Source: Heptranchias perlo | Lineage: Eukaryota | Length of the DNA stretch: 64,000 nucleotides | Direction of reading: 5' to 3' | Assembly: GCF_035084215.1 (NCBI RefSeq) | Contig: NC_090356.1 | Span: 22,940,001 to 23,004,000 of the forward strand | Shown: piece after piece, positions 27,095 to 57,492 of the stretch | Numbering within the stretch: the first letter of the stretch is position 1 | How the letters are laid out: every line of letters starts with the position of its first letter | Translations under genes and position numbers: made by a program | The notes under the pieces: generated by a model | Told to the model about the DNA's origin: nothing | The model's input: only the letters and a program-made list of their open reading frames with translations | The model's database searches: none

Positions 27095-27317
27095 ATGGCA
27101 AATTCAGGGTTTCAGCTGCTTGGCTATTTCTTGGCGCTGGGAGGCTGGGTGGGGATAATTTCCACCACGGCGCTACCCCAGTGGAAACAGTCTTCTTACG
27201 CCGGGGATGCGATTATCACCGCCGTGGGACTGTACGAGGGTCTCTGGATGTCCTGCGCCTCCCAAAGCACCGGGCAAGTTCAATGCAAAGTGTACGACTC
27301 GCTGTTGCTGCTGGAGC
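27095..27317 (+). CDS. CLDN19: Claudin-19 coding exon 1 (TM1, ECL1), 223 nt
   Basis: [74 protein letters not shown], near-identical to recalled human CLDN19 N-terminus; claudin W-GLW-C-C signature; donor GTAAGT at 27318, phase 1. Confidence 0.97.
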
Positions 27318-27755
27318 GTAAGTACAGGACCAAAGGGAAAAGGATTGCGCCTTCACTTTGAGCGGCTGTGTGTGTGTTTGTGAGACCGTTATTCGTGGTG
27401 TGACTTGTGCTAGTCTTTGGTTTGATGCCCTCGCTTCTCAGTGAAATTGACAAGCGGGTTTAGGTTTAGAATGGAAATTGACAGGAATTTGAAATGAGCA
27501 GCGCCTTCTGTGAAATTGAACCGTTTTAAACATTGCCTCCAAAACATTTTGGGCCATTGTAGCACACGTTGATTTCGTTTTATGAGCAACCTTTGGTATT
27601 TGCTTTCTTAATAAATGAACATAGTTAATTCCCAAATGTGAGAAAGTTCGCAAGTATTTATTTGTTTATTAATTCCAGTGAAATACCGATTATTCAGCAG
27701 GGGATTACTGTGGTAAACCGATTAAAACCTGCCAGCCCTTTTATATCCTCACAAT

Positions 27756-28134
27756 TAGGGTTGCCAACTCTCCAGGATTGTCCTGGAGTCTCGAGGAATT
27801 AAAAATGTAATCTCCTGGTGGGAGCAACAGGGAGAAAAATCATAAGGGCATTAAAAAGAAATGTATTTCTTTTCAATCTCTTTGAACACTTTCATTTATT
27901 AGTTATAAAAATATAGGAGATGGGGGGAAAAGGCTGTTTGACTGACAGTCAAGAATCATGCAATTGGGGAAGGAAGAGTCTGTTTGCTTTACAATTGGCC
28001 ATGGGAAGGCGGGGCACCACGAGGATGGATGTGTCGGGCGACCAATGGAGAGAGTGTGGGGGCGGGGCAGTTGGATGCGGGAGGTCATGTGATGAAATCT
28101 CCAGGAATACGTCCAACCAGAGTTGGCAACCTTA
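27756..28134 (+). mobile_element. hAT (Blackjack-like) MITE, CLDN19 intron 1
   Basis: TIRs TAGGGTTGCCAAC / GTTGGCAACCTTA; homologous to 36345-36709; TSD degraded. Confidence 0.8.
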
Positions 28135-28781
28135 CACAGCCCGAGGCGGAGTGGCGTTCCTGGGATCAAATCCCAAGCTCCAACTCAGACTCCAACTTTA
28201 ACCACGAGGGGCGGTCTGAAACTTTCACGGAGGGTTTTTTTTGGCTGGGGGGGAGGGATATTTTTCTCACTTTGCTTTAGGGTTACTTAGCGTGACGCAG
28301 GATTGTCACATATACAGTTAACTGCCTCAAGTTTCCACAATAACTAAACTTTACTAAAAATTGAGACTGAGACATACTTACAGTGCATTTGCAAATTGAA
28401 GCACTGAAAAATACATTATCCACAATAACCAAATAAATTATTGAACTGAATCTTTTAATATATAATAAAGTACAATATACAATACATTTTAAAATCTTGA
28501 TTTAGTAATTCTATTCTTAAAGTGTTCAGAAGGAAATCTTATGGTTAAAACAATTGATTGTAAAACTAAATTAAACTGGGGAAATGTTACATTTTTTGTG
28601 TGATGAAAGTTTAGATTTGAAAGGGTTTATGAACGGTTATTTTTATCTACGTATTTTGTGAATTGAATTGGTGACATTGTATTGTGTAGAATGAACTTAA
28701 AAGAATTCCTGATACTCCCGGAGAGGACTGAATGGTGCATTGTTATTTATTTCCCACTCTGTGCCTTTTCCCATCTTTCAG

Positions 28782-28946
28782 CCCACATCCAGGCATCCCG
28801 GGCCCTAATGATTGTTTCCGTTGTCCTTGGATTTATTGGCATCATTGTGAGTGTGGTGGGAATGAAATGCACAAAAGTAGGAGACAATAACCCACTCACC
28901 AAAAGCAGGATTGCGATCTCAGGAGGGGTCCTTTTCCTCATGGCTG
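28782..28946 (+). CDS. CLDN19: Claudin-19 coding exon 2 (TM2-TM3), 165 nt
   Basis: Acceptor ctttcAG ends 28781; (P)[54 protein letters not shown]; donor GTCAGT at 28947; frame joins exon 1. Confidence 0.96.
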
Positions 28947-30228
28947 GTCAGTTTCAAGATTATTTCTTTTATATACCAAGTTATTAAAAGAGGCACTTTC
29001 CAAAAATAGGGATCGTGTCAGATAATTTTGTAGCAGAAGCATTGAATAAGTTGGCTTGGACAAATGAAGCTATAATCATACTTTGACATTTTCTATCATT
29101 GTTATGATGCCCTGGATATGTTTCGAAGCTTATGAAGATTGCCAGACTTAATAACTTTAGCTACATAATTGTGAATTGCTAAAGTCTGGTTATATAGTGA
29201 TTGCATCAATTATTTGTTTACTTTCAATTGATGGGACTGTGCTCAGTGTGCCTCTCTTGTTCATTAAAAGCACCAAATAGCCTCACCTGCACTCTCTTTC
29301 TCTTCCCGGAATCACCACTGTGTTTAAAATAAAAACTCATCCCATTGTCCCCTACTCCAGCTTGTTCTCTTCAAGCACTTCAAAACTGTGGAACTCCTGA
29401 CCTCTCTCAATCTTTCATCCCTCCTACAATCTGCAGGCTTTTAAAACCCAAGCTCAGAGTCATCTAAAAATGACTTGATTCACCTCAATGTCTTCCCTAC
29501 TCTTTTCGTCTTTGGTGATGTCCTGCACTGTGGGGTTTGGCCCTTCACCTGGGTTAACAGATATTACTGAGAGAGCACAGCGAGCCAGTGAGCTAATAAT
29601 GTTACCGTAGAACAGATAAATTATCTTCCCATATCCTGTTGGTCTTCTACCAAAGTATTCTGTGTTTCTATGTAGCTTTAATATTTTCCCAAATGTTCTC
29701 CCCATCTCTCCTGAAGGCAAAGGTTCACACTAGGGGCTAATTCCCTTGGGTAGTGTCCCCTCCAGTAACCCCCCCTCCATGTGACCATTCTCCATGAATA
29801 AGCCTAGACTATCAGTATTAGCAGACTGTTCAACCACAGGGAGCTTGATCTTACCTGAGGTCCATATATGTGGAGTTTCCAGCAGGAGTCACTGTATAGA
29901 GGTCAGGAAAGTCTGACTGGATCTCCCCCCCACCCCTTCCTAACCCATGGACAAAAAGGCCAATTCTAGTGTCCCAACCAATGCAGCTGGGATTGTCTAG
30001 CTCAGCACATATTGAACCTGGGATCTCTGTGGTCTGTGCGGTTCATCTGAGCCATCGAGGTGTGTCTAGTTAGGAAGATAAATAAGAGTGCCATAAGTCA
30101 GATAGCAGGTCTGGCACTTTTTAATCCTGCAAAGGCTGCAGTTTGCTAATTTATCACATGTTTGCTGTTGACTCGATTCCACACTGAAGACTGACCACTG
30201 ACTCCTGCCTGTTGTCTGTTCTCCACAG

Positions 30229-30313
30229 GACTCTGCACCCTGGTGGCGGTATCTTGGTACGCAACGAAAGTTTCAAATGAGTTCTTTGACCCTTTAACAC
30301 CGGTCAATGCCAG
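30229..30313 (+). CDS. CLDN19: Claudin-19 coding exon 3 (ECL2), 85 nt
   Basis: Acceptor ctccacAG ends 30228; (G)[27 protein letters not shown](R); donor GTACAG at 30314, phase 2. Confidence 0.96.
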
Positions 30314-55432: not shown

Positions 55433-55597
55433 TTAAGATAGTGCTCACTCGAGCGCTAATGATTACAGCAGACATTCTGGCAGGCTTTGCACTTATTATA
55501 TTAATTTTGGGATTGGACTGTGTGAAGATTCTAAGAGATGAACCTCAGATCAAATTAAGGATCTGTTACATGGCAGGCTTCATTTTTGGAATAGGAG
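55433..55597 (+). CDS. CLDN16: Claudin-16-like coding exon 3, 165 nt
   Basis: Long pyrimidine tract plus AG ending 55432; (L)[54 protein letters not shown]; donor GTAAGA at 55598. Confidence 0.95.
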
Positions 55598-56537
55598 GTA
55601 AGACTGACTCATTTAATTGATTTGGTAACACATTTCTTAAAGGGTGCTTGGTGAAATAATTGAAGAGTTCTCCCGATGGCACAATTGGTTTGTGCACGAC
55701 CTGATATGGACCTGAGCCATGTGGACCAGGAAGATCCTAAGTTTTATTGCTGACTTGTGTTCACTGAGCTGGTTTCAGGCTATGGATGTGCTACAATTAG
55801 CCTTCGTGTTCCAGGTAGCCAGGGGCAAAATCAGCCAGGGTTCCCGCTTCTGATTTCTCTCGCCGCTGGCAAATGCTAATGTGTGGATATTGGATGAGGA
55901 CAGGATTGGGCTTTGCTGTAAAGCCCTCAATTATTGACTAGCCTGATTAAGATAATGTCAATCCGAAAATCTGGGCTTCACTGACTGGGATCGGACATGA
56001 AAAATGGATTCTTGGATGAGCCACCAAAAGCTGTGGAACCAAAATCCAGTAACAGTCATCACCTTCAGGAGAGAGGGAAGGGAATTGGGGATTTTTTTTT
56101 AATATGTGCACTATCATTATTAAAAAAACCTCTTAGGGACCATTTTTATGTGTCTGTCCAAACAATGTGATGTAATGATGTAAATTATCCATTGTTTTAT
56201 TGAAAAGCCATAGAAAACCAAGGTCTATAGATACCACTAATGTTGAAACGAGTGGGAAAGAAGATGAGATCATTCAAGAAGCAGGGGTTAGGTGGCATAA
56301 AGCTTGGACTTTCAAACCCTGTAAATTGTAGGAGGAAGGGAAGACTGGGGGCATATGATACTTTAGAGTAAGGCCTATACAGTTCATTCTCAGTCATTAG
56401 CAAATGTAGTGTCTTGAGACCCACTGGAAGCAATTTTAAGTTTTTTTAACGTGTTAGGATTATGTTGGTATTGAGGGTGGTTGAGGCCAAGTCTCTGGAC
56501 ACATTGAAGAAACAGCTAAATGGAAAAATAGTTAGTT

Positions 56538-56710
56538 AATGGGATGACACTAGGATTGTCAATGGGAAAACATTAGGGTTGACAATGGGAAAGCATTAGG
56601 GTTGGTAATGGGATACATTAGGGTTGGTAATGGGATACATTAGGGTTGGTAATTGGAAACATTAGGATTGTAGGGTTGTAATGAGAAACATTAGGGTTGA
56701 TAATGGGAAG
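56538..56710. repeat. ~22-bp tandem repeat containing TTAGGG
   Basis: cattagggttggtaatgggata units, about 7-8 copies. Confidence 0.85.
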
Positions 56711-56855
56711 ATGGTAAGATTGTTATCCTGGAAAGATGGGATCAAATGGGCTACAGGGTCTTCTTTATCCAAAATCTGTCTTGTAACTGTGTGAAGCCCT
56801 CGGTAAGATGGAATGTATAAAGCTGTAAATTGACTTGGTGACTGTCTGTCTGCAG

Positions 56856-57047
56856 GTATCCCAGGTATGATCGGTTCAGTGTGGTACGCTGTGGATGTGT
56901 ATGTGGAAAGAGCTACACTGGTACTGCAGAATGTGTTTTTAGGAATTCAGTACGAATTTGGTTGGTCCTGCTGGTTGGGAATGGCTGGGTCGACAGGCTG
57001 CTTCCTGGCTTCCATCGTGTTAACCTGTTGCCTCTATCTTTTCAGAG
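56856..57047 (+). CDS. CLDN16: Claudin-16-like coding exon 4, 192 nt
   Basis: Acceptor tgcAG ends 56855; (G)[63 protein letters not shown]; donor GTAAGT at 57048. Confidence 0.95.
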
Positions 57048-57403
57048 GTAAGTTGTATCCAACTTTAGTCCCTCCACAACAATTAGCTGTCTTCCTCTTC
57101 CTAGTGCCCTGTATTACTGTGGCACAAATAATGGGAATTACATCGTACGATATACTCAATGATATTTGCACTTTATTACAATATGCCCGCCCATATTTAG
57201 ATGGAATCATTGGATGTTTGACGGGGCTTCTGGGGGGATATCCAGGAAGTGTGGATGACTAGTCAGCACAGCTTTCTGCCCGATTTTCTGCTCCCGCCTT
57301 TTGGAGTCATACCAGAGAACTGGCATAGCTGCAGAGGAAAATCGGCCTCTGCACTCTTAAAAACCCCATCTGGAATGACACTTATTTCTGTTTTCTTAAA
57401 CAG

Positions 57404-57492
57404 ATTCTAGAACTGCACGATCCAACCTATCCTTCTATCAATATGGAAGAACAGCCACTGGCAAAATGTACGCCATGGATTCACGAGTCTAG
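57404..57492 (+). CDS. CLDN16: Claudin-16-like coding exon 5 (cytoplasmic tail); full CDS 663 nt, 220 aa
   Basis: Acceptor aaacAG ends 57403; (D)SRTARSNLSFYQYGRTATGKMYAMDSRV*, resembling recalled human end RTETAKMYAVDTRV; TAG at 57490-57492. Confidence 0.93.

Follow-up and report, generated by a model that had tools for sequence, protein, structure and literature searches.

A second CLDN16 lineage, linked to CLDN19, in jawed vertebrates

CLDN16 and CLDN19 together form the renal paracellular Ca2+/Mg2+ channel, the loss of which causes FHHNC. In the 64-kb stretch of Heptranchias perlo DNA analysed here (hereafter, the window), CLDN19 is followed on the same strand by a gene of the CLDN16 family. 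This raises three questions: whether the second gene is the counterpart of mammalian CLDN16, how it came to lie there, and what the adjacency says about the partnership of the two proteins. An earlier note on this DNA had described the two genes as intact, in tandem and 6.6 kb apart, with no recognisable gene between, and had suggested that the second may be a genome-duplication copy of CLDN16 that is absent from mammals.

The mapped exons, reading frames and poly(A) signals (Table 1) bear out the description of the pair. The first four coding exons of CLDN19 constitute a 209-aa open frame with GT-AG introns, whereas use of the internal donor after 36286 leads into exon 5 and gives a 222-aa form, whose tail resembles that of ray CLDN19. 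The protein is 96% identical to sawfish CLDN19, as against 59-61% to two cartilaginous-fish CLDN1 proteins; a PDB search with exon 1 returned Claudin-19 first (E 1.5e-41; runner-up 2e-22), and in the tree the gene falls in a clade with sawfish, frog and platypus CLDN19 (support 100/100), apart from CLDN1 and CLDN7. The second gene has five exons and encodes 220 aa with zero stops, every intron being GT-AG, and its cumulative exon ends (114/217/382/574) coincide with those of human CLDN16 counted from Met71, the human values following the splice-variant numbering of PMC7140793, Table 4. It is 72% identical to ape CLDN16, versus 25-32% to CLDN1/19, and lies within the CLDN16 subfamily clade (100/100). 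The candidate splice acceptors ahead of its ATG suggest that a 5' non-coding exon may lie outside the mapped exons. A further ATG at 47231 was considered as the start, and rejected as out of frame.

Table 1. Features of the CLDN19/CLDN16 locus (positions in the window; class B is defined in the text)
Feature	Position	Strand	Evidence or remark
CLDN19 coding exon 1	27095..27317	+	99% to sawfish CLDN19; best PDB match Claudin-19
CLDN19 exon 2	28782..28946	+	open frame, GT-AG; protein comparison
CLDN19 exon 3	30229..30313	+	open frame, GT-AG; protein comparison
CLDN19 exon 4	36140..36296	+	stop at 36296 (209 aa) or internal donor after 36286
CLDN19 exon 5, coding part (222-aa form)	40271..40319	+	tblastn with ray CLDN19 tail; AG/GT and frame check
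AATAAA, likely CLDN19 poly(A) signal	40639..40644	+	first AATAAA past exon 5; use presumed
Intergenic stretch, 6.6 kb	40645..47276		27% repeats (self-BLAST) and a single reverse-transcriptase fragment; no recognisable host gene
Pyrimidine tract, with candidate acceptor sites for splicing 6-21 nt 5' of ATG	47239..47276	+	putative
Class B CLDN16 coding exon 1	47277..47390	+	open frame, alignment, human exon ends
Class B CLDN16 exon 2, first extracellular segment	51306..51408	+	open frame; comparison with ape protein
Class B CLDN16 exon 3	55433..55597	+	open frame, GT-AG
Class B CLDN16 exon 4	56856..57047	+	open frame; used as database query
Class B CLDN16 exon 5, short tail	57404..57492	+	stop 57490-57492; AATAAA at 57734, 57789

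The AATAAA at 40639 lies 6,638 bp before the CLDN16 ATG, and the spacing given by the earlier note is therefore right. Within the interval, a Pfam scan, which is blind to short exons and to exons without a Pfam domain, was made of the 60 non-repeat ORFs of at least 40 aa starting in 40320-47277: 58 were without a match, and the remaining two correspond to a reverse-transcriptase fragment and to CLDN16 exon 1, in keeping with the absence of a recognisable gene between the pair. Beyond CLDN19 and the CLDN16-family gene, the 64-kb window holds no further claudin exons; the neighbour is CLDN19, not CLDN1. Of P3H1 and YBX1, which the earlier note had suggested looking for as flanking genes, neither was found in what was scanned: tblastn of the 64-kb window found zero P3H1 exons, and Pfam scans, including for YBX1, found nothing in 150 of the 211 upstream ORFs and in all 63 downstream ORFs.

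Jawed vertebrates possess two CLDN16 lineages, both older than the split between sharks and bony fishes, which we term class A and class B; the window gene belongs to class B. Class A comprises all 38 of the 38 named mammalian proteins, in line with the claim that mammals lack the other copy, together with proteins of birds, reptiles, amphibians, lungfish, coelacanth, reedfish and sharks. In class B, the window gene is joined by those of chimaera, sturgeon, eels, bonytongues, frogs, turtles, lizards, crocodilians and birds, and is 87% identical to the class B protein of the frog Bombina and 84% to that of Anguilla. Each class contains both cartilaginous and bony vertebrates, which places the duplication before their divergence, and four species (Hemicordylus, Nothoprocta, Otus and Cuculus) have both copies. 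Among the matches listed, there were no elasmobranch representatives of class B and no single shark with both copies. All trees were built from subsets: 27 of the 109 named proteins were removed as short or poorly aligned, and records without a name (11 of 120 in the CLDN16 exon 4 search) were excluded from trees and counts alike.

The unrooted tree (47 rows, and again with 26) separates A from B, with support of 100/98 on each side and lamprey between, and the mixture-model tree (22 rows) recovers the same split with 99/97 and 100/97. AU tests rejected both the union of all cartilaginous-fish CLDN16 copies in a single clade (p 5.6e-10) and that of the two Hemicordylus copies (p 3.5e-27). Under the mixture model, grouping of the window gene with elasmobranch class A was rejected (p 1.8e-12), as was grouping with all class A (p 0.002), although the latter survived under LG+G4 (p 0.078; 26 rows in the LG+G4 tests). 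The window sequence shows the B state at six of eight diagnostic columns, and scores +44 bits in favour of B with profiles made without it. Taken as a whole, the sequence comparisons support the proposal that the second gene is a CLDN16 paralogue in its own right rather than the orthologue of the mammalian gene. The CLDN1/7/19 outgroup gave no information on the root: the best root of the outgroup tree (57 rows) falls inside class A, and three root placements (33 rows) are statistically equal (p about 0.27), such that the lamprey protein can fall outside both classes. As these placements are indistinguishable, the age of the duplication cannot be read from the tree.

The arrangement seen in the window recurs elsewhere. 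The Vidua gene model P0132 (411 aa, 5 members) runs through CLDN19 to the end of exon 3 and then continues into class B. CLDN19 and class B are each on a contig of 100,074,911 in Mixophyes and of 59,844,109 in Alligator, whereas in Caretta the contigs differ (23,939,305 and 23,726,695, respectively); the sizes thus match exactly in two of three comparable species, signifying a shared chromosome rather than adjacency. In the sawfish Pristis, a CLDN1-like gene and class A are both on the 115,668,120 contig, and CLDN19 is on that of 32,947,653. In the few species that can be compared, therefore, class B is linked to CLDN19 and class A to CLDN1. Given that the CLDN19/class B tandem is conserved in other genomes, a misjoin, for which the earlier note had allowed, is unlikely. 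In a sheep gene model, P3H1 is fused to CLDN19. Separately, a 396-aa CLDN19-containing record could be another fusion. P3H1 and P3H2 are ohnologues according to PMC8040251, which assigns P3H2 and TP63 to quad B of paralogon 17, and P3H1, YBX1 and TP73 to quad C, with (A,B) and (C,D) parting at 1R; the listed rows of its ohnologue table contain no CLDN entries. That the claudin pairs lie on paralogous segments is suggested indirectly by the contig-size matches, the two fused models and this table; the window itself contains zero flanking markers.

The best explanation of the whole, to which we assign a probability of about 0.8, is that an ancestral claudin pair was duplicated along with the genome. 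An early vertebrate chromosome would have carried a CLDN1/7/19-type gene adjoining a CLDN16-type gene, and a whole-genome duplication, most likely 1R, would have doubled the pair: one copy would have become CLDN1 and class A (mammalian CLDN16), and the other CLDN19 and class B. Mammals would subsequently have lost class B while retaining CLDN19 and class A, and teleosts would have lost class A and later, in most cases, class B (the losses being judged from the best 120 of 202 and the best 120 of 220 matches). One local inversion would also have occurred, since the human CLDN1/CLDN16 pair, which is head-to-head, differs in orientation from the tandem pair of the window. The earlier idea of a duplication copy is sustained to this extent, with the ohnology of P3H1 and P3H2, as given in the published scheme, in its favour; its assignment to the second duplication is not, as that scheme gives 1R and the tree is undated. 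Because a second CLDN16 copy lies behind CLDN19 and was kept by many non-mammals, the two human disease genes, CLDN16 and CLDN19, are probably not the pair that originally lay side by side. The linkage of CLDN19 to class B is most simply inherited from the older claudin pair, and adjacency by itself is thus no sign of selection for co-expression.

Class B might instead have arisen in a stem jawed vertebrate when one gene, or a small segment, was duplicated and landed beside CLDN19, its likeness to the CLDN1/CLDN16 pair then being coincidence or the result of ectopic recombination between paralogous regions. The A/B split seems shallower (79% identity in sharks) than that between CLDN1 and CLDN19 (about 60%), which could point to a later duplication, but would also follow if CLDN16 had evolved more slowly or rediploidisation had been delayed. 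The orientation unlike that of the human pair, the sole lamprey protein being placeable outside both classes, and the zero CLDN genes among the listed rows of the ohnologue table lend this explanation some further weight. Nevertheless, each CLDN16 class accompanies a different CLDN1/19 paralogue on segments that the published scheme gives as ohnologous, an outcome improbable for random insertion, and we judge a small-scale origin distinctly improbable. Far less probable still is that the window gene is an ordinary CLDN16 orthologue moved beside CLDN19, or an assembly error. The comparison within the host genome covers the 64-kb window, which has no class A copy, and one of the AU tests did not reject the window gene with class A; however, class A is present in other sharks and a sawfish, from which the window gene is firmly separated by the mixture-model test, a bird gene model has the same gene order, and the window contains zero N gaps.

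Concerning function, we incline to the view that class B encodes a tight-junction claudin which would co-assemble with CLDN19 into a cation-permeable Ca2+/Mg2+ pore, probably in the distal nephron, with slightly altered selectivity. Of the 10 acidic residues in the ape protein's first extracellular segment, 9 are identical in the window protein; the position equivalent to E133 holds Q in the latter, as in all 20 class B proteins of the comparison, and it is this neutral residue that leads us to expect a slightly different selectivity. Positions of the reported TM3/TM4 cis-interface (PMC4666130) are identical at five of seven sites in CLDN16 and five of nine in CLDN19, the rest being mostly conservative, whereas the retention of FHHNC positions (26 of 32, versus 133 of 188 elsewhere) is not in significant excess (p 0.29). 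Mammalian CLDN16 by itself forms no strands and requires CLDN19 (PMC11740656). Class B may plausibly be a partner of CLDN19 as well. The contrary view, that class B is independent of CLDN19 and has its role in a different tissue or alongside a different claudin, their adjacency being passively inherited on a slowly rearranging chromosome, is a serious contender, to which we would give somewhat less than an even chance. Class A, although linked to CLDN1, has CLDN19 as its partner in trans, which makes linkage a poor guide to partnership among these claudins; among the matches listed, most teleosts appear to retain CLDN19 without CLDN16; and the class B stem is accelerated in reptiles and birds (0.15-0.25 changes per site). 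A scan for an HNF1-type consensus motif was no better than chance (5 matches versus 3.1 expected, none close to either gene start). Against independence stand the strand-forming requirement of the mammalian protein, the largely retained interface and acidic residues, and the bird model that splices CLDN19 to class B. A bolder version of the co-assembly reading, which we consider doubtful, is that CLDN19 and class B were the original divalent-cation channel of jawed vertebrates, encoded by one regulatory, partly co-transcribed unit: the first coding exon of class B is apparently entered via a splice acceptor, the Vidua model joins CLDN19 to class B, and the mammalian pair would reflect a partner swap, in which the ohnologue linked to CLDN1 came into use in the distal nephron and the CLDN19-linked partner was lost.

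Compared with mammalian CLDN16 (paracellin-1, the CLDN19 partner of the thick ascending limb), the window gene has coding exons 1-4 of the same lengths, but it is a separate lineage, lies 3' of CLDN19 rather than beside CLDN1, and has a tail about 15 residues shorter, as in shark class A and lamprey. Several NCBI/UniRef models named 'claudin-16-like' (Bombina P0001, Anguilla P0006, Gallus XP_024998463.1 and Callorhinchus P0074) belong to the window clade; the label is, however, automatic and is also borne by shark class A proteins, and class B proteins of alligator, ostrich and many birds are labelled 'claudin-16' or 'CLD16'. Claudin genes also lie in pairs, within a few kb of each other, in CLDN3/4, CLDN6/9 and CLDN8/17, the only close pairs listed for chicken (PMC3875640), but the window genes are only about 27% identical and have several exons each, and in mammals the proteins related to them combine into a functional heterodimer. 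The paralogon 17 families (P3H1/2/3, TP53/63/73, YBX1/2/3 and SLC2A1-4) occupy the same chromosome segments in the published scheme; unlike them, CLDN16 is seen in only two copies, with reciprocal losses, and is not represented among the listed rows. Our literature search found no paper treating class B as a distinct lineage, although lamprey claudin work or Baltzegar 2013 could mention a second copy.

Class B thus appears to be an ancient CLDN16 copy retained by many non-mammalian vertebrates and lost in mammals: a case of hidden paralogy of a familiar type, with no new mechanism. It follows that 'cldn16' in non-mammalian studies may mean either gene, as the database names mix both. As a natural variant in which a charge of the first extracellular segment is consistently altered, class B could be used in tests of what determines divalent selectivity, and it makes testable the idea that the human channel pair arose via a partner swap after reciprocal gene loss.

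The CLDN16-family gene of the window belongs to a second CLDN16 lineage (class B), distinct from that which includes mammalian CLDN16 (class A). Protein searches queried with exon 4 and the closest full-length match (best 120 of 202 and best 120 of 220, respectively) gave 152 distinct named proteins, and trees built on subsets of the named CLDN16 proteins separate them into two groups, between which the lamprey protein falls (support 100/98 on each side; 99/97 and 100/97 for the same split under a mixture model). Class A comprises three sharks, sawfish, reedfish, coelacanth, lungfish, amphibians, reptiles, birds and mammals; class B comprises the window protein, chimaera, sturgeon, eels, bonytongues, three frogs, turtles, lizards, crocodilians and birds. 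Both classes occur within one species in Hemicordylus, Nothoprocta, Otus and Cuculus. Profile scoring of the 152 named proteins among the matches listed assigned 81 to class A and 70 to class B, the lamprey again lying between; 43 of the 152 went into profile building, and the window protein, which was left out, scores +44 bits toward B and agrees with class B at 6 of 8 diagnostic columns.

A single clade of every cartilaginous-fish CLDN16 copy is rejected (p 5.6e-10). The earlier note had proposed a paralogue of mammalian CLDN16, and the window gene indeed falls outside the mammalian class A group: its grouping with elasmobranch class A is rejected (p 1.8e-12), whereas that with the entire class A is rejected by the mixture model (p 0.002) but not by LG+G4 (p 0.078). 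With distant outgroups, the root lies inside class A and three root placements tie; the A/B split is, therefore, not datable from the gene tree. Class A proteins of bony vertebrates have a longer C-terminal tail that those of sharks lack, as do lamprey and class B, so the tail was gained in bony-vertebrate class A. In turtle, lizard, crocodilian and bird class B, the second Trp of LWW in the first extracellular segment is replaced by Arg (11/11 aligned). Their evolution is also faster than that of class B in fish and frogs; the two features hint at altered selectivity or relaxed constraint in reptiles and birds.

Features of the window (positions in nucleotides)
Feature	Position	Strand	Remark
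Low-complexity array	6950-7750		purine/pyrimidine-skewed, long open frames
Tandem repeat, 12-bp type	24370-25710		1.4 kb before CLDN19; ~1.3 kb, CpG-rich; several frames open (Thr/Pro-rich, 446 aa); probably a minisatellite
CLDN19 coding exon 1	27095-27317	+	exons 1-4: open 209-aa frame, GT-AG introns
CLDN19 exon 2	28782-28946	+	
CLDN19 exon 3	30229-30313	+	
436-bp element, two copies	31647-32082; 35371-35805		CLDN19 intron 3; 89% identical
PRKCSH-matching frame	34125-34325	+	CLDN19 intron 3; lone 66-aa frame, stops either side; Pfam E 1e-9
CLDN19 exon 4	36140-36296	+	end of four-exon form (209 aa)
CLDN19 exon 5	40271-40319	+	joined from donor after 36286; 222-aa form
AATAAA	40639		beyond CLDN19 exon 5
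Decayed LINE fragment	43800-45160		reverse-transcriptase match
Inverted copies	44699-45157; 63550-64000		88%
CLDN16-family gene	47277 to 57492		five GT-AG exons, 220 aa

Both genes are intact, as the earlier note had it, and there are no gaps in the window. CLDN19 shares 96% identity with its sawfish counterpart but 59-61% with CLDN1 from two cartilaginous fishes, which points to a shark or ray as the most likely source of the window. Through a donor inside exon 4, the gene can give either the 209-aa or the 222-aa form (36278-36296 and 40271-40319), a pair reminiscent of the two isoforms of human CLDN19; the tail of the longer form is that of ray CLDN19. The PRKCSH-type frame in intron 3 looks like a decayed retrocopy fragment, its source presumably being ERLEC1. 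The intron positions of the CLDN16-family gene are those of human CLDN16. The proposed spacing of ~6.6 kb with no recognisable gene also holds, the next ATG lying 6,638 bp beyond the AATAAA: 60 non-repeat ORFs start in this interval, and a Pfam scan left 58 of them without a match, one being a reverse-transcriptase fragment and one CLDN16 exon 1. The bases immediately 5' of the class B ATG include a pyrimidine tract along with several AGs, and similar residues appear at this place in frog, eel, turtle and crocodilian models, which together suggest a candidate 5' untranslated exon farther upstream. If joined to CLDN19 exon 3, the strongest acceptor before this ATG would break the frame, and a weaker one at 47264 would preserve it.

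The order and strand of the two genes recur in a bird: the Vidua macroura NCBI model P0132 ('claudin-19 isoform X2'; 411 aa, 5 members, 8.7-Mb contig) runs through the end of CLDN19 exon 3 into a complete class B protein. The sheep model P0247 (Ovis ammon polii) has P3H1 fused upstream of CLDN19. Such models are either read-through transcripts or annotation merges, and in both cases are useful for gene order. Contig sizes, a proxy at chromosome level rather than for gene order, are equal for CLDN19 and class B in Mixophyes and Alligator; those in Caretta differ by 0.2 Mb, probably reflecting two assemblies, giving an exact match in two of three comparable species. By the same chromosome-level proxy, class A and a CLDN1-like gene are on one contig in sawfish and CLDN19 lies on another, class A and CLDN19 are on differing contigs in Lissotriton and Fukomys, and class B and CLDN1 are on differing contigs in chimaera. 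Human CLDN1 and CLDN16 are head-to-head neighbours.

Could the second lineage be a whole-genome-duplication copy, as the earlier note suggested? Its distinctness and CLDN19 linkage argue for this. In the published paralogon 17, P3H2 and TP63 are assigned to quad B, whereas quad C has P3H1, YBX1 and TP73 (Lamb 2021; PMC8040251). The reading stands less well in its detail, as quads (A,B) and (C,D) separated at 1R, the first vertebrate genome duplication, rather than at the second (PMC8040251), and the tree supplies no date; cyclostomes diverged soon after 1R (Nakatani 2021; PMC8302630). P3H1, an expected flank, has no exon that we could find within the 64-kb window, which is not a contradiction, since three species columns of the Lamb table put megabases between P3H1 and YBX1 (PMC8040251).

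Each of the 38 named mammalian proteins among the matches listed, echidna and opossum included, belongs to class A. As the list from the class B query reaches down into class A, any intact class B gene of mammals should have appeared there; this supports, but falls short of proving, the proposed loss in mammals. The four named teleost proteins among the matches listed are all class B, every one eel or bonytongue. No elasmobranch class B representative is among the matches listed; the 64 members clustered with P0001, a class B protein of the frog Bombina, may include one.

Mammalian CLDN16 and CLDN19 associate as a 1:1 cis dimer via TM3 and TM4 (PMC4666130); CLDN16 by itself forms no strands, and the pair has high Ca2+/Mg2+ permeability (PMC11740656). 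In its first extracellular segment, window class B retains 9/10 acidic residues; of the reported interface positions it retains 5/7, and window CLDN19 5/9 (positions from PMC4666130). The E133 position is Q in the window protein, in 20/20 class B proteins and in lamprey, and the 26/32 retained missense positions of FHHNC, the human disease of CLDN16 or CLDN19 mutation, are not above background (p 0.29; table of PMC7140793). The window protein is 87% identical to one from a frog, which indicates strong constraint on class B. Given the behaviour of the mammalian pair, the retained acidic and interface residues and this constraint, class B would most likely act as a CLDN19-dependent cation-pore claudin, and the predicted partnership with CLDN19 is plausible. 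Expression evidence is sparse: a Xenopus cldn16 that may be of either class shares pronephric intermediate-tubule expression with cldn19 (PMC2441470), and an eel 'claudin-16-like' transcript is found in larvae (PMC8227761); cldn16 and cldn19 are given as undetectable in seawater eel intestine (PMC8215749).

Class B is already auto-annotated in many genomes, under database names that do not tell A from B. Full-text searches of the accessible literature, with most hits judged from their listings, turned up no account of the two lineages or of the CLDN19 tandem, although subscription claudin phylogenies could mention them; the parts seen of PMC10991444 and PMC12704743 add nothing on either, and the CLDN19/CLDN16 pair is not among the three linked pairs in the available text of a chick claudin survey (PMC3875640). 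Overall, we consider it likely (probability roughly 0.8) that this is a real, conserved, apparently undescribed and CLDN19-linked second CLDN16 lineage, best explained by a genome duplication that would have left a copy beside CLDN19, later lost in mammals.
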